Program-made: the position numbers and the translations under genes
Notes under the pieces: model-generated
What the model was told of the DNA's origin: nothing
What the model saw: the letters and a program-made list of their open reading frames with translations, nothing else
Database searches by the model: none
Part shown: positions 7,869 through 64,000 of the stretch, piece after piece
Position numbering within the stretch: position 1 is the first letter of the stretch
How the letters are laid out: the number at the start of each line of letters is the position of its first letter
Origin: a virus
Direction: 5' to 3' (one strand)
Length of the DNA stretch: 64,000 nucleotides
Virus genome (UHGV): UHGV-0375936

Positions 7869-7876
7869 GATTTAAA

Positions 7877-22005: not shown

Positions 22006-22036
22006 TTTTACTCTCCTTTAGGGGTTTTTTCGTTAC

Positions 22037-25156: not shown

Positions 25157-25216
25157 CGAAAAAAAAAACGTGCTACTCCTACCCTCTAAGAGGGTAGGAG
25201 GTTACTTTATTTTTTT
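25157..25216. terminator. bidirectional Rho-independent terminator
   Basis: Hairpin TCCTACCCT-CTAAG-AGGGTAGGA flanked by A-run and T-run between convergent genes. Confidence 0.6.
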
Positions 25217-30860: not shown

Positions 30861-30873
30861 GGAGAATTTTTTG

Positions 30874-35055: not shown

Positions 35056-35093
35056 GACAGACTGCCTGCGGGCAGTTGTGTGTCCGTAGGTAA

Positions 35094-35130
35094 CCCCTCC
35101 CTGTAATGGGGAGGGGTATCCATTTTATTT
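35094..35130 (+). terminator. intergenic hairpin / possible attenuator
   Basis: CCCCTCCC-TGTAAT-GGGAGGGG hairpin with T-rich tail between fibre genes 2 and 3. Confidence 0.45.
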
Positions 35131-35149
35131 AAAAGTAGGAGTCTTTACG

Positions 35150-38100: not shown

Positions 38101-40336
38101 TGAAGCCGAATATGATAAAGATACGACTTATGGTTATCCTGGATACGGCGGGTTTGGACCAACATCCCGCCGTGTTGAAAAAAAAGCGAACGAATACGGC
38201 GTATTGACAAATATACCGCTGGTTGTTACGCCAGACATACCGAAAGGTCTACTAGATGGGGCTTACTTTATCGGTGCTGAAAGTAAACCATGTAAAGTTG
38301 TTTACGGTACCACTACGGTGGCTAGTGATCGGTTGTCTATCGATGCGGCAGAATGGGCGAAGTTGACTAATATTGTTCAGTCCAGCCAGTTCTCTGGGGC
38401 TTCTAACGGCAACGCCTATGAGCGGATTAGCGTAGCTAAGACCAAAAAGAACAACTACAGTTTGTCCTTTTGGGTGCTTGGTCAAACGATGTCTGGTGGT
38501 CCGCTTTGTATCGCGATAGTGAGTCTTATCTATAAAGACACTGACGGGGTAAATAAGTTTGCTTTTTACTTCTTTCAGGTAAAACCGACTATAACCAACG
38601 GGGTCATAAGGTTCGTTAGTTCGGAAGCGAGAATGATGACGTTCAGGGAAAAAGTGGCCAGTAACGCCATTAATCTCTCACCCACAGCTTTTAATGGTGA
38701 ACTTAAACAACGCTCCGGTCAAGTTTTCCTTTATTCGCAAGACGGACAAAAGTTCAGATTCTCAATACATAACCTGGTTGGCGGGAATCTTGTAGGATCA
38801 GAGATTTCTTTTGCTTTTGGGATAAACTTGACTAAAAAAGGAGAATGGTTTACCGGCGAAATTCATCGGGCGTGGGGCTATACGTATACGCTGAATAATA
38901 CATCTGAAGTCTATATACCCGATCTCTCGGGCATCGCGCTATTGACTTGTAACTCGGAAGATTTAAACGAGTTGTATCTCGGTGGCGAACAGTATAGAAT
39001 CTCTGATTTGTTTAACAAAAAATATACTGTTATCGATAAGATTATTATTGGCGGCGTACAAACACAGAGCGGTTGGAATTTCTATCTGACGGAGGAAACC
39101 GAGTTAAGTTTTGGAAATAAAAGATATACCGTTCCAAGATGGTCCGTTGATTTAAGCGATGAATTCCCGACTAATCACGCTAACCAGACATTCTACGTTT
39201 ATGCTGAAGTGGTCGGTTCTACTGCCCAATACCGCATCGGTTTAGAGCAGTTAGCTGATACCTCGTCGAGACTGTTTGTTGGGACAGTAACCACTGATTC
39301 GAACCGTATTACGGATATCAGTATCGATAAAGTAAAACGGTTAGGTCGTGTAAAAGAGCTGGAAAATCATGCCTCGGTTGTTGATCAGCACGATGTGGCG
39401 CAGGCGTTCGACAGGAAAACTGGTCCACTATTAACAGTGGTTAATAAACCCGTTAAAGCCATTACAGCATCTGCGAGCAAGGGTGCTGGGTATGTCGATG
39501 GCCAGAAATGGAATACGTTGTCCGGGATTGCAACGCGGCCCAGGTTGCCGGTACAGGAAACCTATTCAGGTTATAAAAGTATCAGCAGGGTGGCGTATGA
39601 GAACTGCGCTGACCAGTTCTGGCAGAAAGCGGTTGCTGCGAACGTTGCAGCGGCTACTGCTTCTGAGAACAAACAAGCAGCAACCGCGAACATGAAGTGG
39701 TTGGGTGCGTATACGAAACCGACTACCGGCGAGTATGCATATCTGGCATTGAGTCTGCGTGTTAAAGTACCTGGCGATCCTGGTACTACTAATCGTCGAC
39801 TGAAAATCAGGCTTGCGGCCCCGACAGGTATAACTCAAGTTCGTTACGGGCTAAATCAGTCTGGCGGTACGATGACTGAACAGACAGTAACGCTAACTGC
39901 TAACAGTTACCTGGAAAAAGAACACGCGGGATTTAAGCCAGCCGCCGAAGTCCGCCTTCATGCTACGTTTGTCATTCCAAAAAATGAATACGATAGCTAC
40001 CGGACCAAATTTGGTGCTGTTCAGCTGATTGACGTTGAGACGAACACTGTCATTAAACAGACAGATATCGACACACCGTTTATCGTGTACACCGCCACAG
40101 AGCAAGCGGCACAATCTGGTTTGGTGTATAAAGCGGTTAAGAGTCAGTTTCGTCAACTCCCGGCTCAACCTGTCGTCATTGTAACTGATGGACAGACAGG
40201 GACTACACCACCGGTGAAAACCGCATATTCTGACGGCACGTTAACGGTCTACGTGGCAACCACGTACGATGCGGTTAACCCAGCACAAACTCGCGATATC
40301 GATAAGCTCCAGTTCAATCTTATGTTTACATCTTAA
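35150..40336 (+). CDS. tail-fibre-like protein (paralog 3 of 4)
   Basis: 1728 aa; AGGAG RBS; shared N-terminal domain (PPEGPFYRIGL...GLDYYLGYY). Confidence 0.65.
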   Translation: MPREDAAQFNGTLSTTTYPNRFNVVIPPEGPFYRIGLKLTVADDTAPNGRRTLIEGLDYYLGYYFKELAEAEQDQIYGGFMLLTATEIEYEILGVARQYRVPQSEIGKFLVRTDLKDPRNVDWSELMAYAPVIQPIDPPANLEEAILRDEVVKALNDIRKKIIQRSTELDAAFTEVTNLIYENGKKIFDEELYQHHLNPNAHQYTTTDVGALPVLGRAVDATKAFGLTIDQLATLMGSAGIEQSDVDQLIGEALGTVYGRWGSTNGNELTFKTAGGHIISIRGDKWLITSPQPLVIKADQDNNESGLAVEFSAGLNTLWVHSGTEQDVLAPVYNSVYLVTPEMVNMYLTSVTLLEANAYFKPSDTVKPYGTAKQSNPLTLNANIPTATESVYGVFSITNIATSVALGTAISQKAVTELKDRLDLYVDDDYTVNGKGFVKTGDKMVLTLTKTDFGIDKMDNTTPIAKPVTKALANVLKNKSLKVHTHTTADLDNVPIGSATVDGILQLWDAIDTTNDKAVTSRQGWLFAKEIKKVSDKLNTLLPAWTTSGSKYTNNSILPILSMGNYEGYGKNMDALQMVIGVQQGKLYALISSKSALPGTEGIYYAVAGLKNDKSLGEIYKTTFRYKPKGLETNYPGVELKEITVTGTEAFIAKGSDDNYYLVKLNGSMDYTKHTDVRLVTFSEFVSETTWEFVPNMFMDRVVIADNGVYVLRTMLMADLKNNSLVDYIKDTPQPMFRVGLLRLNKTDRFEQVDLSSTRKIGKCADLVEPGAFDVDNPNTKRLAYFTAEGKALWTVNLQLTRGVSRWITPVVKDGHLLTVGVSGVCLGFSSTKGTTFGPWNGAYRLDLLTGEVGLETTNIFPIKIDTTGCYLKDGTKIELKWKWATRSSGYMADNRICVGDMVYSCCCSTEKQLAPSLHYQKLPEGVSYLDYVKLSAGYEGQSTFENRINPVVGSVWKPSMTFPLFFPGTNKVWLKHQKTAYFIEAEYDKDTTYGYPGYGGFGPTSRRVEKKANEYGVLTNIPLVVTPDIPKGLLDGAYFIGAESKPCKVVYGTTTVASDRLSIDAAEWAKLTNIVQSSQFSGASNGNAYERISVAKTKKNNYSLSFWVLGQTMSGGPLCIAIVSLIYKDTDGVNKFAFYFFQVKPTITNGVIRFVSSEARMMTFREKVASNAINLSPTAFNGELKQRSGQVFLYSQDGQKFRFSIHNLVGGNLVGSEISFAFGINLTKKGEWFTGEIHRAWGYTYTLNNTSEVYIPDLSGIALLTCNSEDLNELYLGGEQYRISDLFNKKYTVIDKIIIGGVQTQSGWNFYLTEETELSFGNKRYTVPRWSVDLSDEFPTNHANQTFYVYAEVVGSTAQYRIGLEQLADTSSRLFVGTVTTDSNRITDISIDKVKRLGRVKELENHASVVDQHDVAQAFDRKTGPLLTVVNKPVKAITASASKGAGYVDGQKWNTLSGIATRPRLPVQETYSGYKSISRVAYENCADQFWQKAVAANVAAATASENKQAATANMKWLGAYTKPTTGEYAYLALSLRVKVPGDPGTTNRRLKIRLAAPTGITQVRYGLNQSGGTMTEQTVTLTANSYLEKEHAGFKPAAEVRLHATFVIPKNEYDSYRTKFGAVQLIDVETNTVIKQTDIDTPFIVYTATEQAAQSGLVYKAVKSQFRQLPAQPVVIVTDGQTGTTPPVKTAYSDGTLTVYVATTYDAVNPAQTRDIDKLQFNLMFTS

Positions 40337-41576: not shown

Positions 41577-41643
41577 CTTTATTACAGGAGGAACTATGCT
41601 TATGGGCGTAGTCCTCCATTCTTTTTTATTTTAAGGATACGTG

Positions 41644-42039
41644 ATGGCGATCAGTGTTAAAAATGTACGTGACCGAATCACCAACGTAGAGAACCAAATG
41701 GCAACTGGCCCACGTGTTGATCCGCAAGTTGCGTCGAAAGCACATAATGCCGCCGACACTTTTTCGGGTTGGACGCCAAGTCGGTTAGACTGCGGGGGAA
41801 GTTGCAGCTGGACGTGCTCAAACGGCTGTACGCACGGCTGTACGAGTTGTTCGGGCACCTGTACGTCAGTATGTGTAGGTAGCTGCTCCTCTGCGTGCGG
41901 TAACCAGTGTACTGGATGTAGTTCAACATGTTCCGGCGGCTGTTCAGGTTGCAGTGGGACCTGTGGTGGTGCTTGCTCGGGCCGTTGTTCTACGGGTTGT
42001 TCTGGTGCTTGCTCTGGTGGCTGTTCTGGCCCAACCTAA
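41644..42039 (+). CDS. Cys-rich peptide A, candidate RiPP precursor
   Basis: AAGGA RBS; about 50-aa leader then about 80-aa core with about 21 Cys, mostly C-x3-C (CGGSCSWTCSNGCTHGC...); track ORF starts 3 nt earlier at GTG. Confidence 0.6.
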   Translation: MAISVKNVRDRITNVENQMATGPRVDPQVASKAHNAADTFSGWTPSRLDCGGSCSWTCSNGCTHGCTSCSGTCTSVCVGSCSSACGNQCTGCSSTCSGGCSGCSGTCGGACSGRCSTGCSGACSGGCSGPT

Positions 42040-42049: not shown

Positions 42050-42448
42050 ATGGCAATTGGATTACCTGCGCTACAAGCGCGGCTAAATAACATTGACAAC
42101 ACTGCATTGAAGAATACGGGTGCAGTGCAAAACTATATTCGTGGGAAAGCGACGAACAACGCAGACTTATTCGGTGGACAAGCTCGCAACCATTACGACT
42201 GTGGTGGGAGCTGTAGCTGGACCTGTTCGAGCTGTTCTGGTGGTTGTACAGGGAACGCATCAGGCGGCTGTGGTTCTTCGTGTTCTGCAAACTGTGTATC
42301 AGGTTGCAGCGCAGGCTGTAGCGGATGTTCGAATACATGTTCTGGTGGCTGCTCAGGAAGCTGTACGGGGAGTTGTTCTAACTCGTGTGTGGGAAACTGT
42401 TCTTCAGGCTGCTCGGGCAGTTGTTCTGGTGGGTGTTCTGGGAGGTAA
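42050..42448 (+). CDS. Cys-rich peptide B, candidate RiPP precursor
   Basis: GAGGTG RBS, 10 nt after peptide A stop; core DCGGSCSWTCSSCSGGC... with about 20 Cys. Confidence 0.6.
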   Translation: MAIGLPALQARLNNIDNTALKNTGAVQNYIRGKATNNADLFGGQARNHYDCGGSCSWTCSSCSGGCTGNASGGCGSSCSANCVSGCSAGCSGCSNTCSGGCSGSCTGSCSNSCVGNCSSGCSGSCSGGCSGR

Positions 42449-43715: not shown

Positions 43716-44639
43716 ATGACAACCAATGCAGAACCAAGGTTATCGAATCGTTTATACGATAAACCCACCGTATTGTCCGTAGTCGCTACGTCCAAGTGTA
43801 ACCTGGATTGTAGCTTCTGCGGTGGAGCCTATTACATGAATCGTGAAGATTCTCCGCGAGAGTTTCAACGTGAGCGAATTTTGGAAGCGCTGGAAGCTAA
43901 TCCAACCATTACCGAAATTCAGTGGACGGGTGGTGAGCCATTACTGGCAACCCGTAAAATTGAGGCGTTTGTTGACGAATTAAAAGTGATTCGTCCAGAA
44001 CTCAAACACCAGTTGTATACCAATGGCTTAAAGATGCGTAAATCGCATCTCCCGTTGCTAAAACAGTTTGACAATGTCTACGTTAGCATCGATGGGTTTA
44101 AGTCGTCTGAGCGCCCGTTTATGCGCTTTATTGACGAAGGCTGTTACGAAGCACTGGAAACGATCTACGAGCTGGATAATGTCCAGACTTGGGGTGTCCT
44201 GACACGGGACCGTTTAGGGGACAAACGCTGGCACGAAGATATTATTCAGCTGCACAGCGCGATTTACCATTACGGTTTCCGTGCAATGACGTTACTCTTA
44301 GATGCGAAAATGCCAAAACCTTTATCGCCTGACCACGTCATGAACTTTATTTACGGCTACTATCAGGTTCAGGATAACATTGAACGACTGAATGTAGTAA
44401 ATAGTCGTGAATGCGGCTTTACAGTAAGTAAAGTGTTTGAAGAAGGGTGTAACGTTTGCAGCGAAAGTCTTTGGATTAATGCAGACGGCGGTGAGCACCA
44501 ACTCCAGAATGCACCTAACGTTCTGGAATCGGGATGTAACCAACTGGCCTTCTCTATCGGTGTAGAGGCGTACGAATATATTCGTCGCGTAGTGATGGCA
44601 GGGCGTAATAGAGGGGCGGCAAATGAGTCAAGTAAATGA
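43716..44639 (+). CDS. radical SAM enzyme
   Basis: CNLDCSFC (CxxxCxxC) near N-terminus, GGEPLL SAM-binding motif, four more Cys in the C-terminal third. Confidence 0.8.
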   Translation: MTTNAEPRLSNRLYDKPTVLSVVATSKCNLDCSFCGGAYYMNREDSPREFQRERILEALEANPTITEIQWTGGEPLLATRKIEAFVDELKVIRPELKHQLYTNGLKMRKSHLPLLKQFDNVYVSIDGFKSSERPFMRFIDEGCYEALETIYELDNVQTWGVLTRDRLGDKRWHEDIIQLHSAIYHYGFRAMTLLLDAKMPKPLSPDHVMNFIYGYYQVQDNIERLNVVNSRECGFTVSKVFEEGCNVCSESLWINADGGEHQLQNAPNVLESGCNQLAFSIGVEAYEYIRRVVMAGRNRGAANESSK

Positions 44640-45945
44640 ATTCCCTAAGCAGTTAACGTATCAGATCGTAACCAACCTTTCGTGTAACCTGGACTGCGAA
44701 TATTGTTACGAACGTAAGTACCCGCGTAACAACAAAGCGGCGGATATTGTTGATTTCTTACACGCCTGTTTTGAACGTGATAAAAACGAACCGAATGTTG
44801 AAGTTATTATCGACATTATCGGTGGTGAGCCGTTCATGCAGCCTAAACTGCTGCTGGCTGCGTTTGAAACCGCTGAGCAGTTGTGTAAAGAACACAACCG
44901 ACCGTTTATGTTTAGTATTTCCACGAACGGAACGCTGTTAGATCGTCCGTTGAACCGTGAGATCGTAGAACGTTGGAAAGATAAACTTTCGGTTGGGGTT
45001 TCGATTGACGGCTTACCTGAGTCCCATGACCGTTATCGTATCTTCACAACAACACGCCAGGGTTCTTACGAAGCCGCAGTACGTGGCTATAACTACTTAA
45101 AAGAGGTTGGCATTGCAGAGCTCGGCGTAAAAGCAACCTTTACGTTAGAAACGCTGCCGTTCTATGCTGCGGGGATGAAGTCATTAATTGACATTACTGG
45201 CGGTGGGACAATTTCTGGAAACGTAACTTTCGAAGACGTTATGCCGCGTAGCATGGCGACATCAATCGCTTTACAGATGATGGATGTGATCGATTATTGG
45301 GTTGAGAAAGGATTACACACCAACCCACGTAATATCTTATCGCACATCATTCCAGAAGGGTTGGATTTCGATACGATTTGGGAACCGAACTGGCGTGACC
45401 AGTTACTGTATAATGACACCGTACGGTTGAACCCAGAACGTTTACGTCCGTTCTGTGGGACGTTAACGCACATGACGTGCTTAGGATTTGACCGTAAGAT
45501 CTTTGGCTGTAACCGCTTTATGTCAACGGTAACGTCGCGTTCTGCGGTGTTTGAGTTGGTAGGTCGGGAATTCGTCAGTCTGGACAACGGTAAGCTGCTA
45601 GAAGAGATTCAAACGCAATATACCAACTACCCAGAGACCTGTTTAGGTTGTCCGATGAAACACGCTTGTGGTAGCTGTGCTGCGGCTTCTTACGAGAACG
45701 GGGAAGGAACGTTAGAAGACCGTAAGGCGTATCACGCTGAACGACGTCAGTGCGGCTGGACGACAGCGAAACTGATGGTGGCGGAATACTGGAAACAGAA
45801 GATGGGTACGACGTCAGCAAAAGCGTTCCATGACACGAGCATGTGTTATTGCCCACGCTGTGTTCGTGAACGTGCCCAAAAGGAAAAATTATTAAGAGAA
45901 GCCAAAGATGAAACCAATTCTGATCAACAATATTACGAAGCGTAG
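44623..45945 (+). CDS. radical SAM enzyme with SPASM-like domain
   Basis: CNLDCEYC, IGGEPF, STNGTLL, and C-terminal CLGCPMKHACGSCAA Cys cluster; 17-nt overlap with upstream radical SAM gene. Confidence 0.8.
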   Translation: MSQVNEFPKQLTYQIVTNLSCNLDCEYCYERKYPRNNKAADIVDFLHACFERDKNEPNVEVIIDIIGGEPFMQPKLLLAAFETAEQLCKEHNRPFMFSISTNGTLLDRPLNREIVERWKDKLSVGVSIDGLPESHDRYRIFTTTRQGSYEAAVRGYNYLKEVGIAELGVKATFTLETLPFYAAGMKSLIDITGGGTISGNVTFEDVMPRSMATSIALQMMDVIDYWVEKGLHTNPRNILSHIIPEGLDFDTIWEPNWRDQLLYNDTVRLNPERLRPFCGTLTHMTCLGFDRKIFGCNRFMSTVTSRSAVFELVGREFVSLDNGKLLEEIQTQYTNYPETCLGCPMKHACGSCAAASYENGEGTLEDRKAYHAERRQCGWTTAKLMVAEYWKQKMGTTSAKAFHDTSMCYCPRCVRERAQKEKLLREAKDETNSDQQYYEA

Positions 45946-46480
45946 AATTCGACTTCTGGATAAGTTTCTGGAAAACAGTAAGCTATTCGGTTGTTATGTG
46001 GTGATTAACGGTGAAGATTTTACCGATGACGTAAAACGCTTACTGATTCGTCACGGCGTGACTGTAATCATCCCAATGTACTGCACCGAACTTACTGACC
46101 TGTCGGTCGCGGAAATTGAAAAACGTAACCCAGGGTTTGAAGAACGGGTATTGGATTTCCCACGTCACAAAATTGCGTTTCTACGCCGCTCTTTAAGCGA
46201 ACCCAGCGCAGAATCTATCACTGTGTTGGCATTGTCCTTCCCAGGCATTACTATCTTCGCAACACGTAACCCGAACTCACCGATTGATGGGTTTTACGAT
46301 GAGCGGGAGAAATTTAATAGCGTGATTTTTCCTGAACTAACGCCAGAAGAATGTCAGGGTATCCGTATCGATTGGGAATCGGACTTCGACACAAGATTCC
46401 GTCATATCGATTTTGAACTGTTAATCGAATTAGGGTTGATTAAAGGAGACGATGAATGTCTGCTACTGGTGAAGGCTTAA
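45908..46480 (+). CDS. hypothetical protein
   Basis: 190-aa ORF overlapping the end of the radical SAM gene. Confidence 0.5.
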   Translation: MKPILINNITKRRIRLLDKFLENSKLFGCYVVINGEDFTDDVKRLLIRHGVTVIIPMYCTELTDLSVAEIEKRNPGFEERVLDFPRHKIAFLRRSLSEPSAESITVLALSFPGITIFATRNPNSPIDGFYDEREKFNSVIFPELTPEECQGIRIDWESDFDTRFRHIDFELLIELGLIKGDDECLLLVKA

Positions 46481-47127
46481 CGAAAGAAGAAATCCGTCGC
46501 CGTTATTTTGCGCACGATTTACCGATTGACCGTCATGGTAACTACATGGAGAAAATCGGTAGCGAAGATCACGGCCGTACAGGGTTTTGTGCATTACTGC
46601 ACTATAAGTTGATTGATGGGATGTCTGATCGCGAAGCATTGGAGCAAATGCGTAACTACGACATGTCTGAAATCGAAGCACGGTTTACGCTACAGAAAGC
46701 GAAAGACTTTGTTAACGACACGCTGGGAATTGACCTGGAAGAGATTCGTACGGGGTTACGTTCCACCGTACGGTACATCTTTACCGATGTTCAGAAAATT
46801 CTAAGCGCTTTGGAATTCCGTTATCAGGATGCGCGCTATGCTGAGATTCAGGTAGGTGATTTCACTTTCCAGGCAGATGAGAAGTCACAGGTAGCACTGA
46901 GTCGTTATATCCAGTCAGAAACTGCGCCAGCGTATTGGTTAACGGCTAACAACACCCGTATCGAACCGTTTACGTTAGAACAGTGCAAGACGTTGCTGGC
47001 AGCAATCGTTGAGCGTGATCAAAGACTACACCACGCAATGTCTGAGCAGAAAAGAGAAGTCAGGGCTTGGGCTGAAGCACGTGATTACGATTCGATAAAA
47101 GCGTTTGCGTTAGAGCAAGGGCTGTAA
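46456..47127 (+). CDS. hypothetical protein
   Basis: 223-aa ORF overlapping previous gene; last gene before bidirectional terminator. Confidence 0.5.
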   Translation: MSATGEGLTKEEIRRRYFAHDLPIDRHGNYMEKIGSEDHGRTGFCALLHYKLIDGMSDREALEQMRNYDMSEIEARFTLQKAKDFVNDTLGIDLEEIRTGLRSTVRYIFTDVQKILSALEFRYQDARYAEIQVGDFTFQADEKSQVALSRYIQSETAPAYWLTANNTRIEPFTLEQCKTLLAAIVERDQRLHHAMSEQKREVRAWAEARDYDSIKAFALEQGL

Positions 47128-47134
47128 TCGACAG

Positions 47135-47190
47135 CGAAAAAAACAGTATACCTACCTCCCGTAATAGGAGGTAGGTATTTTTATTTTTTC
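47135..47190. terminator. bidirectional Rho-independent terminator
   Basis: 12-bp perfect stem ATACCTACCTCC-CGTAATA-GGAGGTAGGTAT flanked by A-run and T-run. Confidence 0.7.
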
Positions 47191-47721
47191 TTAGGACGTA
47201 AAACCGTCCAGCTCACCGTTGGTGGTGGCCAGGTCAATACGATTATCAACAACCTTCGGCGTAATTACGAAAGTTGCCATTACACCTGGCTTATAACGGA
47301 GGTTCTTTTCAGTAACGGTACACGTTACCGTACGCAGAGTGACGCTATCGTGTTCGTCTTTCTGGTCTTCGGTGGTGTACTCAGCGTCACCAGGTGCGAT
47401 AGAGTCGTCAGGTTTTACTTTATTGATGTAAAACTGTAATCGGTCGCGTAGTTCGTTTTCTCCAGTCCAGAGAGCCAAATCGTCCGTTACCTCAATGCGT
47501 CCGACAACGCCAGGTTCCAGACGATCGTAATGCAGTTCGATTGCGCCTTTAAAATTTTCAGACTCTGTACGTGCGGTCATGGTAACTTTGGTATTTTTAT
47601 CGCCCTTTTCAAGAGCGACAGGTTGACCAAAAGTTACCTCTTTATCAGTGACCTGATGCGGTAGCTCTGTGTTAGCAGCATTATAAAGCGCAACTAACAT
47701 CATCTGGTTAGTAGCTGCCAT
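47191..47721 (-). CDS. putative virion protein, paralog family B
   Basis: Shares NTKVTMTARTESENFKG...HYDRL and NGELDGFT with 47787..48353. Confidence 0.5.
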   Translation of the reverse strand: MAATNQMMLVALYNAANTELPHQVTDKEVTFGQPVALEKGDKNTKVTMTARTESENFKGAIELHYDRLEPGVVGRIEVTDDLALWTGENELRDRLQFYINKVKPDDSIAPGDAEYTTEDQKDEHDSVTLRTVTCTVTEKNLRYKPGVMATFVITPKVVDNRIDLATTNGELDGFTS

Positions 47722-47786
47722 TATCTTAAATCCTTAAAATGAAAGTTAAAGAAATATCGGGGGAGGTTACCCCCCCCCCGAATCAA

Positions 47787-48353
47787 TTACTCTTTAGGCG
47801 CTGGTGCGGTGAAGCCATCCAGTTCACCTTCCAAACCGCTCAGTGCTACTTTCTCAAGAGCTGGAGGGGTAACTTTATACGTCGCAACAGTACCTGGCAG
47901 GAACTTCAAGTGGCCAGCCACAACCGTTACCACGTAAATGGTTTTGCCTTCTTCTTCACGAGAGATAGTTTGCAGGTCGTTTTCACCGAACTCGTCATCG
48001 GTGTACCCTTTCTCAGCCATGGCTGCGTTAACTTTCGCCAGGATTTTCGTCGGTGAATCGAAATCGGTAGTAGGTGCAGTTACTTCAACTTCACCAACGA
48101 TGTCGCAGGAAAGACGAGTATAGTGGAATTCTTTCTCGCCTTTGAAGTTCTGGCTTTCTGCCTTGGCGGTCAGAGTAATTTTAGTGTTGCGGCCAGCTTC
48201 TCCGGTGAACTCAGCGACAGCACTAAAATTAACATCATTTACAGTCAGCTTAGAAGCAGTTTGGTTGTTTTTAGCAATTACAATCTCGATAAGCTGCTGT
48301 TGAAAAGTTTTAGCCATTGTTTTTACCTCGTAAGTAGTATGGGTGGTTTGCAT
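47787..48353 (-). CDS. putative virion protein, paralog family B
   Basis: Paralog of 47191..47721. Confidence 0.5.
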   Translation of the reverse strand: MQTTHTTYEVKTMAKTFQQQLIEIVIAKNNQTASKLTVNDVNFSAVAEFTGEAGRNTKITLTAKAESQNFKGEKEFHYTRLSCDIVGEVEVTAPTTDFDSPTKILAKVNAAMAEKGYTDDEFGENDLQTISREEEGKTIYVVTVVAGHLKFLPGTVATYKVTPPALEKVALSGLEGELDGFTAPAPKE

Positions 48354-48457
48354 AGTATTGTTCGGATTATAGAAGTGTTGTTAATAGTTATGACAGACAG
48401 CAGTAAGGGTTGTCTGTAAAATTATTATTTTTTAACTTTTTATAGAAGGGTGAAAAC

Positions 48458-48940
48458 ATGCTAAAACGTTTTCTACTTGTTGTAACTGCAGCACTTTCGT
48501 TGGCAAGCTGTGCCCTACAACCCACCGCTAACGGTCAATTCTCGACTGTACCCGTAGAGCCACACGACATGGTTATTTACACCTGTATGGGTGTAGAGCA
48601 AGATTTTGTAAATTATAAACCTGTCGTCAATTCGACTAACCTAATGTTAGGCTCAGTAACTGTAATCGATACTGGTGCTAACTGGGTAGCCACCTGGCCA
48701 AATGGTAAGATTGAGTCACCCCAACTTTATAAAGATCTATTAGGTAAAGTTAATGGAAATATCGATCCTATCACGGGACAACGTTACTACCGTGTAAATG
48801 GGTTACTTTCAAAAACACCAACATTTGCGTATTCTACTTTAGAATATAAAACGGGTGATGGTAAAGGCATTACTTTCTTCCACTGTAAAGAAGGTGTAGC
48901 GTCTGACACTGGAACAATGCTCCATCCTGCGGAACAATAA
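48458..48940 (+). CDS. lipoprotein (moron-like)
   Basis: Signal peptide ending in lipobox-like LSLASC; lone plus-strand gene with its own terminator. Confidence 0.6.
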   Translation: MLKRFLLVVTAALSLASCALQPTANGQFSTVPVEPHDMVIYTCMGVEQDFVNYKPVVNSTNLMLGSVTVIDTGANWVATWPNGKIESPQLYKDLLGKVNGNIDPITGQRYYRVNGLLSKTPTFAYSTLEYKTGDGKGITFFHCKEGVASDTGTMLHPAEQ

Positions 48941-48944
48941 AAAC

Positions 48945-48980
48945 TACCCTACTCCTTAACGGGAGTAGGGTATAGTCATT
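48945..48980 (+). terminator. Rho-independent terminator
   Basis: TACCCTACTCC-TTAACG-GGAGTAGGGTA hairpin right after the lipoprotein stop. Confidence 0.6.
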
Positions 48981-49055
48981 TTAACCGCCAAATCGTGCGT
49001 AGAACGCATTCTAAGCGCCTTTATACAAAATAAGGTATAAACGCCTTAGAAATAA

Positions 49056-49571
49056 TTAAATCTCGACTAAGGCGCTCCAATCGATTGGTTTTTGCTTAAC
49101 AACCTTCACAGTACCTCGATTTGGTGACCAGAAAGTAATGTTAGGCTGGTTACGAACGTCAATGTGCAACCAACTGATGTCACATTCAATAAAGTGAATG
49201 AACGGAAACTCGTCAGGGTTAGCAGCGATATAGTCGTGAACCTGTTTTACGGTGCTATCCAACAACGTTGCGTCAATGGCGTTACCGAATTTGTGTTGAC
49301 TTCCTGAATCGGCGTAAAGCTGCAACGCACGTTGTTTATAACTACCGCCCTTAGGCTTTTCTTGATTAATAAAGAAATCTAAGGTTCTTAGTCCACGTTG
49401 TTGTGCGGCAGTTGAGTTAATCACCATTCTACCGAAACGGTTACGAATCTGTTGTAGGGAGATCATTAACAACGGATTCATAAACCGAATTGCAGAATCG
49501 CCGTATTTGGCAATATAGGACTGTGGTACTAACTCTCTGAGTTTAAAGTTACTCGGATTTGGATGAAACAT
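49056..49571 (-). CDS. peptidase M15-like (VanY/L-Ala-D-Glu peptidase type) protein
   Basis: SQHKFGNAIDA fits SxHxxGxAxD; later WLHID His motif. Confidence 0.55.
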   Translation of the reverse strand: MFHPNPSNFKLRELVPQSYIAKYGDSAIRFMNPLLMISLQQIRNRFGRMVINSTAAQQRGLRTLDFFINQEKPKGGSYKQRALQLYADSGSQHKFGNAIDATLLDSTVKQVHDYIAANPDEFPFIHFIECDISWLHIDVRNQPNITFWSPNRGTVKVVKQKPIDWSALVEI

Positions 49572-50223
49572 CTTCCCTCCCAGACAGAAATGCCCGTTTA
49601 ATGTTCAGGTATTTGACATTAACGGGACAATCTGTGGTGATATCAATACGTTCGTGGTCAGGGATTGCAGGTTCCTTAAACTCGCGAACGAATAAATAGT
49701 TTCGATTATAATCTAACGTACGAAACGCGTTAGTGTTGTAGGATGGCTTTGCATTAGGATCTACGTAGGCATCCCAGCCGAATTCAACAACGGCCTTATA
49801 AAATGTTTGGCAGATATAAGGCGAGATTTCCAACGACTGCATAATACGCAGGAAAGTTAAGTCAGAGAACTCTTTATCGATGAAACGCGAAACGTTACCA
49901 CCCGGTGTCATGGGATAGCTACGCTCCGTGTTGCATTTTTGATAGAGTAAGTCGTGAATACAGGCCGCAGGTGCCCACGGTCCGTCAGGATGGAAAATTC
50001 CCTGGAGGTGTTCAGGAATTGACGCTAAATCAGTAACGAACCCTTTCGGTGCTGTTAACCACAGTTGTGTGTCAGGCAATACACCGGTTAAATAAACCGC
50101 ACGGTCTAAGTGTACGTGGTCGTGATATATCTCACGTAACGTAAACGGATAATGGTAATCCTCCGTTAATACAAACCACTTATTGTCTAAACGTTTATAT
50201 TGAAGCTTCTCCATTACCCACAC
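49549..50223 (-). CDS. hypothetical protein
   Basis: 224-aa ORF overlapping start of the M15 gene. Confidence 0.5.
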   Translation of the reverse strand: MWVMEKLQYKRLDNKWFVLTEDYHYPFTLREIYHDHVHLDRAVYLTGVLPDTQLWLTAPKGFVTDLASIPEHLQGIFHPDGPWAPAACIHDLLYQKCNTERSYPMTPGGNVSRFIDKEFSDLTFLRIMQSLEISPYICQTFYKAVVEFGWDAYVDPNAKPSYNTNAFRTLDYNRNYLFVREFKEPAIPDHERIDITTDCPVNVKYLNIKRAFLSGREDVSSKSE

Positions 50224-50330
50224 CTTCCCTTATAGAAACCAGAAAAATTCGTATCCACGCTTTTCGTCTTTACGTTTCCGCCCAGACGTTAACGCTTTCC
50301 ACAATAGTGCTAAGAGTTTAGCAAACCAGT

Positions 50331-50921
50331 TCATTTTACTAACCCCGCCTTCACTACATAATCCGGCATTTCCCTGAACACACGTGCATACCAACCGTAA
50401 GCGAATTTTTCATTCTTCTTACGCTTTTCGGAGATTTCTGTGTAGTAAGTTACCTGGTGTGAGATTAACGCAAAGATTAAAATGCCTAATCCCTCGCCTT
50501 TACGGTAATTCAGATAAGCATTCAGAGCACCTAGCGTTTTAGGCCCCATACCGCCGTCGGTGTCAATATCTGCGTAAAGTTTCCCTTCGTTATTTAAAAC
50601 GTTGAGAATACGTTGTAACGATTTCACACAGTTAACACGGCCAGAGTTAATAGCAAAATCAAACATCCGGTCGGCGAGTATCGGCGAGATAGCGAAAATC
50701 TCATCGAGTTTAAGTTTCTTCCACCAACCACGATCGTAAATGTCAAACGCTTGCGCACGGGTCAGATCTTTCATTCTTCCTTTGTACCCGTATTCGCGTG
50801 CAGTTGTCAGTGTTACCCCGTGACAGGTTTCCCCACCTTTATCGTCAGGGTCGTTCACGTACCCACCCTCTAAATCTGTTTTTGATTCAATAATACCTTC
50901 TTTAGTCCAACGTTCGGCCAT
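50331..50921 (-). CDS. endolysin-like GH108 lysozyme with peptidoglycan-binding region
   Basis: N-terminal EGGYVNDPDDKGGETCHGVT typical of GH108; C-terminal region consistent with a PG-binding module. Confidence 0.7.
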   Translation of the reverse strand: MAERWTKEGIIESKTDLEGGYVNDPDDKGGETCHGVTLTTAREYGYKGRMKDLTRAQAFDIYDRGWWKKLKLDEIFAISPILADRMFDFAINSGRVNCVKSLQRILNVLNNEGKLYADIDTDGGMGPKTLGALNAYLNYRKGEGLGILIFALISHQVTYYTEISEKRKKNEKFAYGWYARVFREMPDYVVKAGLVK

Positions 50922-50943
50922 TTTGTTTAACTCCTCTTTTACA

Positions 50944-50978
50944 CAAAAAAAGAAAAGAGGGTGGGATTACCCCACCCT
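50944..50978 (-). terminator. Rho-independent terminator
   Basis: AGGGTGGG-ATTA-CCCACCCT hairpin with A-run on plus strand. Confidence 0.55.
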
Positions 50979-50992
50979 GTAGTTATTTCTTC

Positions 50993-51457
50993 TTAGCGAG
51001 ATGGCTTGGCTGGCGCTGCGGCGACAGACGGTTTACGCGCAACACGCACTGTAAAACCACCGACCCAGGTTAGACACTCAGGACGGAAGAAAATACCGTG
51101 TTCGATTGCACTGCCGTCCAGCGGTAACGCACCAACCTGCTCTACCCATACGTCGTCTTCGGTAAGGGTTAAGCCATATTGCTCGTTAATTACAGGCAGC
51201 AGATCCGCAGTTGTGGTAGCTGATTCAACTAACAGTTTCGGCAATACGTTGAGGAAATACAAGCCTGCATCGATGCGGTTATACTGGAACGTTTGCTTAT
51301 TAGCATAACCGAGATTCTTAACCGCCACAACCGTAATTTCGGTATTGTAAGTACCGGTACTTACGACGGGATCAGCCAATGTGACTTTGGCGGTGTCAAG
51401 CTCAGCGTCTGGGTTAGCCTTTTTAATAAGGTCGAAGATAGTTTCTTGACTGGTCAT
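50993..51457 (-). CDS. putative virion protein, paralog family B
   Basis: Shares ...Y.R..... and DLLPVINEQYGL motifs with 51471..52319. Confidence 0.45.
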   Translation of the reverse strand: MTSQETIFDLIKKANPDAELDTAKVTLADPVVSTGTYNTEITVVAVKNLGYANKQTFQYNRIDAGLYFLNVLPKLLVESATTTADLLPVINEQYGLTLTEDDVWVEQVGALPLDGSAIEHGIFFRPECLTWVGGFTVRVARKPSVAAAPAKPSR

Positions 51458-51470
51458 TACTGTAATCCTC

Positions 51471-52319
51471 TTAATCTAAGAATCCCGGTAAGACCGAATT
51501 AGTCTTGGCTAATTCAATCTTCGACTTCGGACGATCGGTTCCGTTAAAGTGGATTAACAGATTACCGGTCAGGTTAGCACACATACCGCTTAGGGCGAGT
51601 ACCAGCACACGTGTGTACTTCGCATTTGCACCTTCGAAACCTGCGGTAGGGCCATCGTAGATAACCTTAGCACCGTAGAGGTTATTAGCAACGTTCTTAG
51701 GTACGCTTACCCATTTCTCATCAACGACGTTGACCAGTTTAGTGGCTAACTCAGCCATGTCGACAGTGTCGTTGATGGTAATCGGATCGAGGTAATCTTT
51801 TTCTGCGGTGAAGTCAATTGGATAAGAATAAACCGCAGCATTACCTTTCTTAGTGGACGGATACTCTACCAGGTTTTCTAATTGAGTAACAGGTAACAGT
51901 TTAGCCAGATCAATAGGATCGCGTAGCGTGAGTGTCACCTCGCCACACCACTCGTAGGATTTCTCGTTAGCGGTAAGCTGATGGGATTCACCTTCAACTT
52001 TCGCATCAACGATATCCGACGGTAGAATATTTAAATCGTATTTTGCGTTAATCGCATTAAGCAAATCTGCGGCGGTTACAACACCGTCGTTACCGAATAC
52101 CAACTCACCTGTTAGGTATTCGGGCAAATTACGACGATGGTAAGTCACGGTTAAAGTAGTAGACTCATCGCCTTTGAGTTTAGAAGTCAGAACCACCTGG
52201 GTATCAACCCCAGTACCAGTAGGTTCGCCGATATCAACATCACTGAAAGTCAATGGCGGAACAATATTGTTTTCAGTGTTGATGAGTTTTAGCAGTTTCT
52301 GTTTTGACGTAAGAGACAT
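51471..52319 (-). CDS. putative virion protein, paralog family B
   Basis: LTVTYHRRNLPEYL and DLLNAINAKYDLN related to neighbours. Confidence 0.45.
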   Translation of the reverse strand: MSLTSKQKLLKLINTENNIVPPLTFSDVDIGEPTGTGVDTQVVLTSKLKGDESTTLTVTYHRRNLPEYLTGELVFGNDGVVTAADLLNAINAKYDLNILPSDIVDAKVEGESHQLTANEKSYEWCGEVTLTLRDPIDLAKLLPVTQLENLVEYPSTKKGNAAVYSYPIDFTAEKDYLDPITINDTVDMAELATKLVNVVDEKWVSVPKNVANNLYGAKVIYDGPTAGFEGANAKYTRVLVLALSGMCANLTGNLLIHFNGTDRPKSKIELAKTNSVLPGFLD

Positions 52320-52485
52320 CGCGTTAACTCACAATAAGTAAAAAGGTTTAAGAGGTCGTTTTACATCCCTCAGCCAGCATAGGAATAGTCGAGTAGAGAG
52401 TAAGCAAAGTGGTGTCAAAATAACAAAAAAGAAAAGGGAAAGAAAATTAATTCCGCTATAGACCGAAGCCTATAGCGGAGTGAGA

Positions 52486-52917
52486 TTAACGAACGTTGTG
52501 TGCTAAGTACATCAGAGAACGAGTGTCGGTGTCACGAGAAGTTTGTGACATCTGGCTCAGTAACTTGTTGGCGGTAGGATCGCTATAAAGACGTTTTAAC
52601 CATTCGTCAACCATTTCTGGTACAGTGTCGACCAGCAGTGGATAGTTAAGATTTTCCAGTGTGTATTCAACGAATTCGTGCATCAGATTCTGGTCACGAT
52701 GCATGGTGTCACCTAACTCACCTGCGGGATACTCTTCACGAGGACGTTTACCCCAGCTGCAAATCTCCATATAGGCCGTGTTTACAATCTCTTTGTATTC
52801 CTCTAACTTAAGTAAATCGAAGCCAGTATTCGGGCGGCAGAAACCTACTAAAACGCTCAGAGCAATAGGGTTGTTACGAACGTAGTTACGGATTTCATCA
52901 TTTAATACGAAAAACAT
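52486..52917 (-). CDS. hypothetical protein (paralog of 54197..54625)
   Basis: Shared N-terminal (NDEIRNYVRNNP / NSDLRDYIRQYP) and internal motifs. Confidence 0.5.
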   Translation of the reverse strand: MFFVLNDEIRNYVRNNPIALSVLVGFCRPNTGFDLLKLEEYKEIVNTAYMEICSWGKRPREEYPAGELGDTMHRDQNLMHEFVEYTLENLNYPLLVDTVPEMVDEWLKRLYSDPTANKLLSQMSQTSRDTDTRSLMYLAHNVR

Positions 52918-52986
52918 TTTAATACTCCTTTAGGTAAATACAATAATGGAGGGGTGGTAAACCACCCCTTGTACGATTTTAGTTAA

Positions 52987-54174
52987 TTAACGAAATTTTT
53001 GACAAGCAGGGCAATCGCAGCCTATACCAGATGATATTTCTCTAAAGATCGCGTCGATCGAGTGCTCATTATTCTTAAGAAAACGAGCTCCCGCCAAGTC
53101 ACGCAGATGAGTTTTTAACTTTCCGATAATACCGGGTTCATAGTTGAGTAGAATGGTAAGTGTATTGTCTGTGTAAGTCCACTGACGGACTTTCTCAGGA
53201 AACCAACTAGCGATATCACGCATAAACGTATCGGCATCTTCTTTCCCAATAGCAGTGATTGTCAGAAGACGTAGCCGATCGTTAACAATATCGTCAATGA
53301 GATCACGAATTTCATCTCCCAGAGAAAGGTCGTCTAACGGGAGTTTAATGGTGAGCTGTTCGCCCTCGAGTTTAGTTTCTACCCTGCTGGAGTAGAATCC
53401 TGACAAGGTGTCACTAACATCTTTGGCATCTGGGCCAGTATAATTAATGGCATCCTGTCTTTCGGCGCATTTACGTGAATTTTTCTTTATTAACTCATCC
53501 ATACGGGTGCGTAGCTGATTAATAACAACAGGGTCATTATCAACAAGTACGGCTAGAGTGTCGCGAACATAATTAGACTGGAGAATTTTCTCCTTGTGTT
53601 CGTGAACGGCCCCACGCATGAATTCGTCCGCTTCACCTTTTCCGATACCTCGAAACGAAATAAGTCGAACGGCGTCTTTGACGATCCGTGCAACGGTGAT
53701 GCGAATAGCTTTAATGAGCTTAGGTTCGAAAATGAGCCTATGATCGAAATCATTCAACCAGACAACTAACGTGTCGTATTGTTGACCGACGGTTAAATAA
53801 TCAGGATAGAGAGCTTCTAACGCTTCTTTAATTTTCTCGTTCGTTTCGGCATCATACCGATAGACGAGCGGATTGTCGTCGCTGGTTTCAGCCCACTGCT
53901 GCTCTTCGACTTTCGGTTGCTCTGTCTCGGCCGCTTTTGCCTTGGCGTTTGCGGCTACCGGGTTGAGCAACTCACCGATTTCCACCGCAATAGTGTCAGA
54001 AACGTACTCACTGCTGTCAGTCCAGTAGAATACGATGCTTTCATCGTTGACCTGCTCTACACGGAAATGTACACCTTTATCCAGGAATATGCGATAAAGT
54101 TGATCAAGTAACTGTGCTTCAGGAACCGGACGGATTTCAGTTTTAACGAGCGGGGTAATTTCGATATTAAACAT
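52987..54174 (-). CDS. hypothetical protein with internal duplication
   Basis: Two related segments containing IGKGEADEFMRG / IGKEDADTFMRD. Confidence 0.5.
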   Translation of the reverse strand: MFNIEITPLVKTEIRPVPEAQLLDQLYRIFLDKGVHFRVEQVNDESIVFYWTDSSEYVSDTIAVEIGELLNPVAANAKAKAAETEQPKVEEQQWAETSDDNPLVYRYDAETNEKIKEALEALYPDYLTVGQQYDTLVVWLNDFDHRLIFEPKLIKAIRITVARIVKDAVRLISFRGIGKGEADEFMRGAVHEHKEKILQSNYVRDTLAVLVDNDPVVINQLRTRMDELIKKNSRKCAERQDAINYTGPDAKDVSDTLSGFYSSRVETKLEGEQLTIKLPLDDLSLGDEIRDLIDDIVNDRLRLLTITAIGKEDADTFMRDIASWFPEKVRQWTYTDNTLTILLNYEPGIIGKLKTHLRDLAGARFLKNNEHSIDAIFREISSGIGCDCPACQKFR

Positions 54175-54196: not shown

Positions 54197-54625
54197 TTAA
54201 CTGTAATTGTGCTTAAAGAACTCTAAAGCACGCTGGTCGTTTGTAATCGCCGTTGTGGACATTCGTTTTAACGCCTGTCGGCAGTAAGCGTCGCTCAGAA
54301 TACGTTGCTGCCAAGCGTTAACTATTTCCGTCACTGTTTCCCCTTCTACAGCAGTGTTAAGTTTATCGAGACAGTGTCGCCCTAACAGAAACGCAACTGC
54401 GTAATCGGTAAACATCTCGGTGCCGAAATCCCCGTCGGGATAATCGCAACGTTTACGTACCGACGTTGCGGTAATGGAGTTATAGGCGGTTTTTATTATC
54501 TCGTGGAACTGTTCCACCGTTAAGATGTTAACGTCAGTACCTGAAAGCGTAAGCGAAGCCAGTACAGGAATACTGGCTGGGTACTGACGGATGTAATCAC
54601 GCAAATCTGAATTGAGCGTTTTCAT
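54197..54625 (-). CDS. hypothetical protein (paralog of 52486..52917)
   Basis: See 52486..52917. Confidence 0.5.
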   Translation of the reverse strand: MKTLNSDLRDYIRQYPASIPVLASLTLSGTDVNILTVEQFHEIIKTAYNSITATSVRKRCDYPDGDFGTEMFTDYAVAFLLGRHCLDKLNTAVEGETVTEIVNAWQQRILSDAYCRQALKRMSTTAITNDQRALEFFKHNYS

Positions 54626-62555: not shown

Positions 62556-63068
62556 CTACTCTCCAAAAGTTAAGATTTTATTGTCAAACGTCAACACGAC
62601 AGAATCATCACCGATGCCACACGGTGTTTCATCTGGGCCGAAAACCACCACGGAGAACTGTCCTTTATAAGCGATGGAATTCGGAGCGATGCTAAGCGTT
62701 ACCGCGTCTTTACCTACCGTGAACGACTGGTCGGTTAAATCGTCGGTTTGTAAGTTAGCACCACAAACAGCATTGACGGATTCGATAAGATCGTGTGCAT
62801 TAAACCCTTCACCTCTTACTTTTACCAGAATAGGTTGTTGGTTTAACCACCGCTCTGCGGTTAAACGGTTGTAGTAGATTTGCAACGTTCTGTTTCCAGG
62901 ACGTTTAATCTTTACAATGGCAGTGGAGTCACGATCCATTTCATCACTGGTTTTTACGTCACTGACTTCAACCTCGTTCTCTTGCAAGTCAAGTTGGAGG
63001 TCATGGTTAACCAGTGAAATAACCATGTTAAGTGAAGTTAGTGATAAATCTGGTGTGAATTTTTCCAC
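62556..63068 (-). CDS. putative virion protein, paralog family B
   Basis: RTLQIYYNRLTAER and DLIESVNAVCGANL resemble motifs of 47191/47787/50993/51471 proteins. Confidence 0.4.
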   Translation of the reverse strand: MEKFTPDLSLTSLNMVISLVNHDLQLDLQENEVEVSDVKTSDEMDRDSTAIVKIKRPGNRTLQIYYNRLTAERWLNQQPILVKVRGEGFNAHDLIESVNAVCGANLQTDDLTDQSFTVGKDAVTLSIAPNSIAYKGQFSVVVFGPDETPCGIGDDSVVLTFDNKILTFGE

Positions 63069-63166: not shown

Positions 63167-63670
63167 TTAGCTAATTCTCAAATCACGCAGTGCGCCTGTC
63201 GATTTCATCACGTTTTGGAACGCGCCACTGATGTTATTAGTCCAGTAATAATGCTGTCCGTTAATAACCTGCTGATAGGTCAGCGCGCAGGTGTTGCCAC
63301 CTAAATTTACGGTAATGTTAGAGGCTCTGCCTCCTTGTAAGTAAACCGCTAAAGTAGGCTTTGCGTTGGCAACTATCGTCGTTAACTGTAACTCAATACC
63401 TACTAAAGTTCCCACCCCGCAGTTACCCGCGTTTTGAATGGTTCCCTGATTTTTCTGGTTTAACGGCCAGCTTGGTCCTACCGCGCCCCATTTCTTACCT
63501 AAAGAATCGCTATATGCAGCGGTTGCAATTTTACAGCCCATAGATCTTCCCACCATTTGACTCATCATAAAAGGTCTACCCAATCCTAATTTACTACCAG
63601 CAGCGCTCATCCATTGTTCGCCCGTTTCGTTCTTAGCCGAAGAACCGACCCATCCAGATGCTACCCCCAT
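63167..63670 (-). CDS. hypothetical protein
   Basis: 167-aa ORF, Gly/Asn-rich. Confidence 0.5.
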   Translation of the reverse strand: MGVASGWVGSSAKNETGEQWMSAAGSKLGLGRPFMMSQMVGRSMGCKIATAAYSDSLGKKWGAVGPSWPLNQKNQGTIQNAGNCGVGTLVGIELQLTTIVANAKPTLAVYLQGGRASNITVNLGGNTCALTYQQVINGQHYYWTNNISGAFQNVMKSTGALRDLRIS

Positions 63671-63686: not shown

Positions 63687-64000
63687 TTAAACACGTGAAC
63701 CGTATATTGCACCTACTGCGTCCCATCTTGGCGCATTACCAGTAACAGCTTTACCAGCTGCTCCGCCGTTATATTCTGTACCGTTACCATGAGTATTACA
63801 TCTTCCTCCAGCAGCACCGACATTACCACCCGAACCGCCTGTATATGCACTAAGAGACCCCTCACCAACAGATCCTTTACCAGGAGCGGAAATAGTACCA
63901 GCAGTTGCACCGGAACTCATATGAGAGGAAGACCCACCAGCACCGAATGGGCGACCACCGCCACCACCAAATATTAGTCTACCCCTGTTACCGCCGCCAC
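63687..64000 (-). CDS. Gly-rich protein, partial (N-terminus beyond window end)
   Basis: Minus-strand frame stays open upstream of the track Met to the window edge (…GGGNRGRLIFGGGGRPFGAGG…). Confidence 0.4.
   Translation of the reverse strand, partial: GGGNRGRLIFGGGGGRPFGAGGSSSHMSSGATAGTISAPGKGSVGEGSLSAYTGGSGGNVGAAGGRCNTHGNGTEYNGGAAGKAVTGNAPRWDAVGAIYGSRV

Follow-up and report, generated by a model that had tools for sequence, protein, structure and literature searches.

What are the five small, related proteins encoded in one part of the virus genome UHGV-0375936, and how could they serve the phage that carries them? Their open reading frames (ORFs), here called A to E, all lie on the minus strand, within 15.9 kb of a 64,000-nucleotide stretch of that genome, which we analyzed as a whole and refer to as the window (Table 1). 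An earlier reading of the bare sequence, the original prediction, had taken their products for a dispersed paralogous family of small putative virion proteins, perhaps repeated decoration or fiber-associated subunits. We find that the five genes are additions to an already described family, DUF7941, and that their previously 'hypothetical' products can now be annotated as chimalliviral DUF7941 virion proteins. By analogy with its relatives, this DUF7941 set of a phiKZ-like phage would consist of external virion proteins that join non-covalently head-to-tail into flexible heteropolymeric filaments, a mechanism that we consider moderately likely, with a probability of roughly 60%.

Five members of one family

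The relationship between the five proteins is significant at the level of profiles. All exceed the curated gathering score of PF25613 (DUF7941), 27 bits, with 36.2 bits for A, 39.3 for B, 103.7 for C, 180.0 for D and 51.6 for E; thus protein E, which had been included with a 'probably', belongs to the family as well, and all five frames lie where they had first been placed. The match of D covers positions 5-275 of the 276 in the profile and that of C positions 7-155. The full architecture of N-terminal domain, disordered linker and C-terminal domain is found in D only, while A, B, C and E comprise the N-terminal domain with or without linker, as in gp23 of phage Goslar and gp126 of phiKZ. In pairwise BLAST, only A and B are clearly related (32% identity, E-value 4e-24), the other pairs yielding weak but colinear alignments. 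An hhalign comparison of the A/B subfamily profile with that of the D subfamily gives a probability of 96.9% (E-value 1.4e-10) over the full A/B length, and the five proteins cross-match PHROGs 1037, 2935, 3589 and 4862, annotated as 'virion structural protein' (for individual matches, A to phrog_4862 with an E-value of 2e-34 and protein E to phrog_2935 with 5e-23). Hidden Markov models (HMMs) of the five proteins, of a set of 21 family members and of three subfamily alignments pick exactly A to E among the 371 six-frame ORFs of the window; no sixth DUF7941 member emerges among these ORFs below an E-value of 0.1, the N-termini of the large ORFs included. We regard the membership of all five in DUF7941 as virtually certain.

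The two sequence blocks that had first drawn attention to the family fared differently. DLL..IN..Y.L is found literally in C and D, and more loosely in E (DLIESVN) and B (KILAKVN). T..T....Y.R..L has a literal match in none of the five, but its Y.R core is real: across 20 family members, and in the numbering of D, Y60 is nearly invariant and R62 invariant. A usable alignment for D was obtained from a search restricted to SPN3US, Goslar and phiKZ sequences. An assignment of the five to the phiKZ gp131-like fiber family was considered and rejected, as none of them matches the fiber PHROGs 2163, 7557, 8078 and 7449; these belong to the three giant ORFs of the window, in which the HMMs detect no DUF7941 signal (best E-value 1.3). 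Nor do the five proteins match any known decoration fold or family in Pfam or the PDB.

Beyond the window, 1.84 billion representative proteins were searched with a profile, which retrieved 3268 family members (E-value up to 0.001). Most have about 280 amino acids, others are long and carry DUF7941 at the N-terminus, and some representatives have duplicated C-terminal domains. Natural single chains with two, three and up to 11-12 modules also occur among them, and such covalent strings of modules are what a head-to-tail lining-up of separate subunits predicts. Two long chains, P0121 (1496 residues) and P0130 (1166 residues), carry 11-12 consecutive modules of the DUF7941 N-terminal domain, some of them half-modules.

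A chimallivirus related to SPN3US

When positions 46000-53000 were compared with GenBank phages by megablast, no close relative emerged, the sole match being one of 416 bp at 75% identity, and the phage was therefore identified through protein comparison. D shares 44% identity with proteins of SPN3US and Erwinia jumbo phages whose genes are annotated 'virion structural protein'; its homologs in Goslar and phiKZ (gp127) are more distant. On its reverse strand, the window parallels the Salmonella jumbo phage SPN3US from gp122 through gp170: E is followed by D and C, a GH108 hydrolase, a DUF1353 protein, an M15-like protein, a lipoprotein, and B and A, and beyond A by a DUF4376 protein, two radical SAM proteins and three giant fiber paralogs, such that the stretch from D to the giant fiber genes corresponds in gene order to SPN3US gp138 to gp170. 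Given this synteny and the place of the SPN3US genus, Seoulvirus, in the Chimalliviridae, the window is, by its gene content, part of a chimallivirus genome, that is, of a phiKZ-like jumbo phage related to SPN3US. Chimallin itself is not encoded in the window.

Relatives at 76-94% nucleotide identity, with the same five DUF7941 genes in the same order, are found as contigs of ~220-228 kb in many Salmonella enterica, E. coli and Shigella assemblies and sequencing runs; the contigs bearing all relatives found range from 107 to 245 kb. These finds point to an enterobacterial jumbo phage that is widespread and accompanies isolates in culture, either in a carrier state or as a contaminant. Relatives have between 1 and 4 genes of the A/B type, and a 17-gene array in SPN3US corresponds to just D plus C here. 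B is the most divergent of the five, with 57% identity to its counterpart in one relative, L004, as against 76-90% for the others; C of L004 has kept the domain, while its C-terminal end differs in sequence and length.

Predicted structures and a conserved terminal peptide

In its AlphaFold2 model (mean predicted local distance difference test, pLDDT, of 81), D has a confident N-terminal domain (residues 1-135) and, after a linker (about 136-165) of low confidence from about residue 140, a C-terminal domain (168-262) that is again confident and is followed by a poorly predicted tail of 20 residues, a pattern that agrees with the description of Goslar gp22. B is modeled as a single domain followed by a lower-confidence tail (mean pLDDT 82.9), and the order of secondary-structure elements is identical in the two models, with one extra β-strand in B. 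The sole significant match of either model to a solved structure is phiKZ gp127 (PDB 9XQD). Specifically, the N-terminal domain of D aligns with 9xqd_0 in Foldseek (E-value 1.7e-6, TM-score 0.66 over 150 modeled residues), phmmer links D to PHIKZ127 of 9xqd (E-value 1.6e-7), and the C-terminal domain of D aligns by sequence to residues 97-290 of gp127.

The most conserved part of A/B-type proteins is the tail, which is present in all A/B-type homologs and reads K(I/T)(D/T)L(A/S/G)xxNGELDGF: 10 of its 15 columns are at least 90% conserved, compared to 29 of 155 elsewhere (Fisher p 1.8e-4). A near-identical peptide forms the extreme C-terminus of SPN3US gp160, gp145, gp148 and gp151. Alignment by hhalign pairs the A/B tail with the internal linker of D-type proteins, for which the consensus over 92 representatives is L....T.L.GL.YP, and a common form of the peptide, φxLxxxxxxL(D/P)G(F/L), is found in A, B and D, whether terminal or internal. 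As judged from this alignment, the terminal peptide of A and B is homologous to the D-type internal linker. By this conserved peptide, A and B classify as 'donor' subunits, and D is probably a donor too; the peptide is missing from phiKZ gp126 and from C, which accordingly looks like a cap, a candidate chain terminator, while E has a different tail.

Does D carry the peptide twice? Compared with the tail of A, the C-terminal tail of D ranks first among the 36,734 15-mers of the window (BLOSUM62 score 38, next 30), at the same C-terminal position. The A/B-family HMM places its tail columns 155-176 on this segment, which is conserved in relatives at 78-91% identity. It may tentatively be read as a second, divergent docking peptide. 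An HMM of the A/B tail only matches A, B and SPN3US gp145 and does not find the D tail, and a generic linker HMM of 17 positions, from the 92 representatives, does not separate linkers from background, giving D's own linker 0.9 bits.

One family, three descriptions

The family has been described three times: as a Pfam DUF, as 'paralog family B' of SPN3US, by mass spectrometry in 2016-2017, and in a 2026 preprint on Goslar, in which SPN3US is not mentioned (bioRxiv 10.64898/2026.04.21.720040). Thomas and colleagues defined family B through PSI-BLAST, with members taken from virion mass spectrometry, as gp83, gp138-154, gp160/161, gp237 and the candidate gp122 (PMC5105663, PMC5694885). In BLASTP, D matches gp138 (ACQ60_gp128; 44% identity, E-value 3e-70), B and A match gp160 (45%, 1e-39, and 38%, 2e-29), C is nearest to the N-terminal domains of gp141 and gp139 (38% and 33%; E-value 4e-24 for gp141), and E matches gp122 (ACQ60_gp144; 32%, 4e-27). 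The RefSeq tag ACQ60_gp(266−N) here stands for gpN of the papers, a conversion checked by the masses of gp160 (18.5 kDa) and gp141 (32.6 kDa) and by the 5.2-kb gp168. By these matches, DUF7941 and SPN3US paralog family B are the same family. When Goslar and phiKZ proteins were searched one-way against the ORFs of the window by BLAST, Goslar gp22 matched D, gp23 matched A/B and gp24 the GH108 hydrolase, while phiKZ gp127 matched D and gp126 matched B/A. An equivalence of C with gp126, proposed from its position after D, was rejected, as gp126 is closer to B/A by sequence. Through its orthologs, namely SPN3US gp160 and gp141, Goslar gp22 and gp23, and phiKZ gp127, the proposal that A to E are virion proteins is supported.

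How the family might work has been drawn most fully for Goslar. Ten DUF7941 proteins are described there, with ~2500 DUF7941 copies per virion and individual estimates of ~580 for gp22 and ~2140 for gp23, and purified gp22 forms filaments. In AlphaFold3 models, gp22, gp23 and phiKZ gp126-gp127 form head-to-tail dimers, in which the linker (plus C-terminal domain) docks on the next N-terminal domain; the authors refitted the gp126-gp127 dimer into the phiKZ map and proposed a 'filament cloud', anchored on the peripheral baseplate, for host capture. Some members carry carbohydrate-binding, glycoside-hydrolase or leucine-rich-repeat (LRR) domains (bioRxiv 10.64898/2026.04.21.720040).

Transferred to the window, this model would make D, of the gp127/gp22 type, the base unit, situated by phiKZ analogy on the outer baseplate beside gp130-like and gp131-like parts, where its linker and C-terminal domain would be donated to a subunit of the A/B type. 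The abundant chain extenders would be A and B (gp23/gp160 type), as they combine an N-terminal domain as socket with a tail as plug. Having the socket but no plug, C would terminate chains, and E would connect the network to a receptor-modifying esterase encoded immediately downstream. Such filaments would enlarge the capture radius of the phage, carry host-recognition modules and help to find the host. The window has host-recognition genes to match, with a gp130-like baseplate gene, three gp131-like fiber genes, adhesins upstream of E and the esterase downstream of it, and the suggestion of fiber-associated subunits fits both the head-to-tail model and this context of fiber, adhesin and baseplate genes.

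Head, baseplate or neither

Several points weigh against filaments of this kind. The same family occurs in two tailless SPN3US mutants and was assigned to the head (PMC5105663, PMC5694885, PMC10052503); one gp127 is modeled per lobe in phiKZ, more in keeping with a static part than with a filament (PMC13250141); and the Goslar maps have no density for these proteins, while the Goslar preparation also held non-virion assemblies, so that the copy numbers could include free filaments (bioRxiv 10.64898/2026.04.21.720040). Within the window, the evidence for a second plug on D consists of a 15-mer match that ranked first and a partial alignment to one HMM, short motif HMMs giving no support, and C, by sequence not an equivalent of gp126, is a putative cap by its missing linker.

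The first of these points underlies the main alternative, in which the proteins are associated with the head or neck, attached to or packaged in the capsid, and not with the tail. Family B is present in DNA-filled tailless particles of the mutant 64_112(am27), from which gp138-154 were called head proteins (PMC5105663); it was again listed under head proteins, with gp141 and gp160, as abundant in virions as the tail sheath, marked 'Head ejection?' (PMC5694885), and heads purified from 255(am107), a tail-tube mutant, likewise contained it (PMC10052503). The assignment to the head follows from presence in tailless particles and, as the family is that of D, A and B, would extend to the proteins studied here, whose PHROGs moreover fall into the category 'head and packaging'. 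Co-purification of family B with tailless heads is in conflict with an anchoring on the baseplate only. However, phiKZ gp127 has been fitted in the outer baseplate (PDB 9xqd), none of the eight SPN3US head proteins that the prohead protease processes belongs to family B, and the abundant Goslar members are seen in no ordered capsid density. Their absence from the ordered atomic model likewise leaves the 'decoration' part of the original prediction, if an ordered decoration of the capsid is meant, without support. The carbohydrate-binding, glycoside-hydrolase and LRR domains on some members suit an external role, as does the location of the genes among those for fibers, baseplate and adhesins. 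Furthermore, filaments that assemble by themselves could be purified along with heads and yet not belong to them, and the head data and the filament model could be reconciled if free filaments did so, as other assemblies did in the Goslar preparation. We consider an association with the head or neck unlikely.

A second alternative sees the proteins as low-copy, static blocks or adaptors of the peripheral baseplate that form no long filaments. It would account for the phiKZ atlas (2026), in which a single gp127 per star lobe of the outer baseplate caps the end of the gp139 band (PMC13250141), for the modest number of members here, five compared to ten in Goslar and about 20 in SPN3US, and for the lack of a linker in C. 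It would not account for the abundance of the orthologs of A and B, SPN3US gp160 and Goslar gp23 with its ~2140 copies, for the conserved donor peptide that A and B retain and phiKZ gp126 lacks, for the filaments of Goslar gp22 in vitro, and for the tandem multi-module chains that occur in nature. On balance, purely static parts seem quite improbable.

Filaments could, lastly, have a mainly intracellular or assembly role, such as the organization of late virion clusters ('bouquets'), and merely co-purify with particles. The presence of family B with or without attached tails would be expected then, as would the self-assembly of gp22 independently of other virion parts, whereas the fit of the gp127 N-terminal domain into virion density, the fusions to receptor-binding or glycan-degrading domains, which point to an extracellular function, and the coupling of E to adhesin and esterase genes would not. 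This we deem very improbable, and external, host-directed filaments remain our preferred explanation.

Protein E and a host-recognition cassette

What sets E apart is its surroundings. In its tail, the LTFG end is conserved among relatives and the segment just before it is variable. The ATG of the esterase gene follows 3 nt after the stop codon of E (TAG) and has its own GGAG site; a frameshift-split single gene was therefore rejected, all the more as relatives have E alone. The esterase gene is missing from the otherwise collinear L004 and is thus taken to be an insertion specific to its lineage. Over its first 43 residues, the esterase shows 44% identity to the start of the 'tail fiber protein' gp123 of SPN3US, whose gene follows the ortholog of E there; at the level of sequence, this suggests that the N-terminus is a conserved attachment module to which different C-terminal parts can be joined. 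We regard E as a candidate adaptor within a host-recognition cassette, and the esterase as its possible cargo or partner.

Directly upstream of E lie two Gp38-type adhesin genes, T4-like modules in a chimallivirus. The first (63167-63670, minus strand) encodes a T-even-type Gp38_N adhesin-like protein (Pfam E-value 3.6e-20); the second (63687-64000, minus strand), which runs off the window, encodes the glycine-rich C-terminus of a full GP38-type adhesin and is 97% identical to a 260-residue gene in L004.

Gene starts, transcription units and neighboring genes

The coordinates of the family and of the elements around it are collected in Table 1. B probably starts at Met13 (ATG at 48317), which would give a protein of 176 residues and leave the first 12 codons untranslated, as homologs begin there and the AlphaFold2 pLDDT is below 50 for residues 1-12. 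Bracketed by terminator-like hairpins, D-C, B and A are, on these predictions, separate transcription units; the run of ten G in the hairpin after B could be slippage-prone.

Table 1. The DUF7941 genes of the window, their peptide segments and adjacent elements
Feature	Position	Strand	Description
A	47191-47721	-	176 amino acids (aa); tandem paralog of B; N-terminal domain and putative C-terminal docking peptide
B	47787-48353	-	188 aa as listed; N-terminal domain and putative C-terminal docking peptide
C	50993-51457	-	154 aa; DUF7941 N-terminal domain, then short variable Pro/Ala/Lys-rich end
D	51471-52319	-	282 aa; full-length DUF7941
E	62556-63068	-	170 aa; GTG start, AGGAGG ribosome-binding site; N-terminal domain and a different tail (…VVLTFDNKILTFGE)
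D internal linker, residues 136-154	51858-51914	-	IDLAKLLPVTQLENLVEYP; low pLDDT at residues 146-165
D C-terminal tail, residues 267-281	51477-51521	-	KIELAKTNSVLPGFL; possible divergent second copy of the docking peptide
B C-terminal peptide, residues 168-182	47808-47852	-	KVALSGLEGELDGFT
A C-terminal peptide, residues 161-175	47197-47241	-	RIDLATTNGELDGFT
SASA-type carbohydrate esterase with DUF6645	60432-62552	-	706 aa; Pfam; context only, outside the DUF7941 family
Terminator-like hairpin after B	47757-47781	-	10 pairs, G10 run, then T-rich stretch
Bidirectional terminator-like hairpin after A	47148-47178	.	hairpin prediction
Terminator-like hairpin after C	50958-50978	.	hairpin prediction
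Hairpin upstream of D	52452-52479		brackets the D-C transcription unit together with the hairpin after C

Between C and B, at 48458-50921, lies a cell-wall cluster in the same order as SPN3US gp156-gp159. It encodes a hydrolase with GH108 and PG_binding_3 domains, which shares 49% identity with Goslar gp24, a DUF1353 protein whose PHROG is annotated 'tail assembly chaperone', an M15-like protein of the endolysin type and, in the opposite orientation, a lipoprotein in which LASC resembles a lipobox. Between the DUF7941 and the fiber genes, two neighboring radical SAM / SPASM-like genes that overlap each other (43716-44639 and 44623-45945, plus strand) are conserved in L004 and in SPN3US (gp163/gp164 region). 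The giant paralogous ORFs at 26538-30860, 30871-35055 and 35150-40336 (plus strand; 1440, 1394 and 1728 residues) have a common N-terminal region (phrog_2163) and correspond to SPN3US gp170, gp169 and gp168, the phiKZ gp131-like fiber family. The adjacent ORF at 25207-26469 (minus strand; 420 residues) encodes a homolog of the outer-baseplate protein, gp130 in phiKZ and gp30 in Goslar, beneath which the fibers are attached. Paralogous pairs or sets unrelated to DUF7941 were seen at 52486-52917 and 54197-54625 (minus strand), 41641-42039 and 42050-42448 (plus strand), 20013-22591 (minus strand) and 7263-8812 (minus strand); examples are two phrog_8484 proteins of 142/143 residues (33% identity, E-value 7e-27) and a tandem pair of 132-residue proteins (45% identity).

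A possible code, and comparison with named systems

Could the arrangement of plugs determine the architecture of the polymer? In a more speculative extension of the filament mechanism, which we hold to be rather doubtful, every member would have a socket, and the …L(D/P)GF plug would set its place in the polymer. D, which would have a further plug at its C-terminus in addition to the internal linker, would serve as a base unit that is bivalent or branching; A and B would extend the chains and C would cap them, while E, with its …LTFG tail, would recruit swappable receptor-modifying enzymes via their conserved 43-residue N-terminus. If this were true, the five-member phage would represent a pared-down counterpart, amenable to genetics, of systems with 10-20 members, and could settle whether filaments are anchored on the baseplate, the head or both, and whether virions in late-infection 'bouquets' are held together by tangled filaments. 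The conserved terminal peptide offers a testable handle on the joining of subunits. More generally, our analysis ties together a Pfam DUF, SPN3US family B and the Goslar and phiKZ structures, which do not cite one another on this matter, and thereby exposes the conflict over location, head versus baseplate; what it adds is the identity of DUF7941 with family B, the pattern of docking peptides, the placement of E in a host-recognition cassette and the existence of chains of up to about 12 modules. As the lineage is found in Salmonella, E. coli and Shigella assemblies, its host-recognition apparatus bears on phage therapy and on the ecology of enteric bacteria.

How does this set compare with the known ones? 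In SPN3US, where the authors place the family in the head, there are about 20 members as opposed to five, with 17 tandem genes in place of D and C, and one gp160 in place of B and A. Goslar has the same Pfam family and the same architectures, D being of the gp22 type and A and B of the gp23 type with N-terminal domain and linker, and it shares the neighboring peptidoglycan hydrolase of the GH108/ZliS type, gp24, 49% identical to the protein in the window. However, identity to the Goslar members is just 22-35%, there are ten of them, and some are fused to carbohydrate-binding, glycoside-hydrolase or LRR domains; there is no such fusion in the window, which has a separate esterase after E instead. 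D has an extra C-terminal tail that Goslar gp22 lacks, and filament formation is known for gp22 only. In phiKZ, with two or three members only and gp127 modeled once per baseplate lobe, gp127 is the counterpart of D by sequence and fold, and gp126 is of the same type as B and A; yet gp126 stops right after the N-terminal domain, whereas A and B continue into the …NGELDGF tail. The gp131-type fibers of phiKZ (SPN3US family C, gp168-170), encoded in the same window at 26538-40336, are likewise a paralogous family of the baseplate periphery and fibers, but with 1394-1728 residues they are unrelated to A to E in sequence and size.

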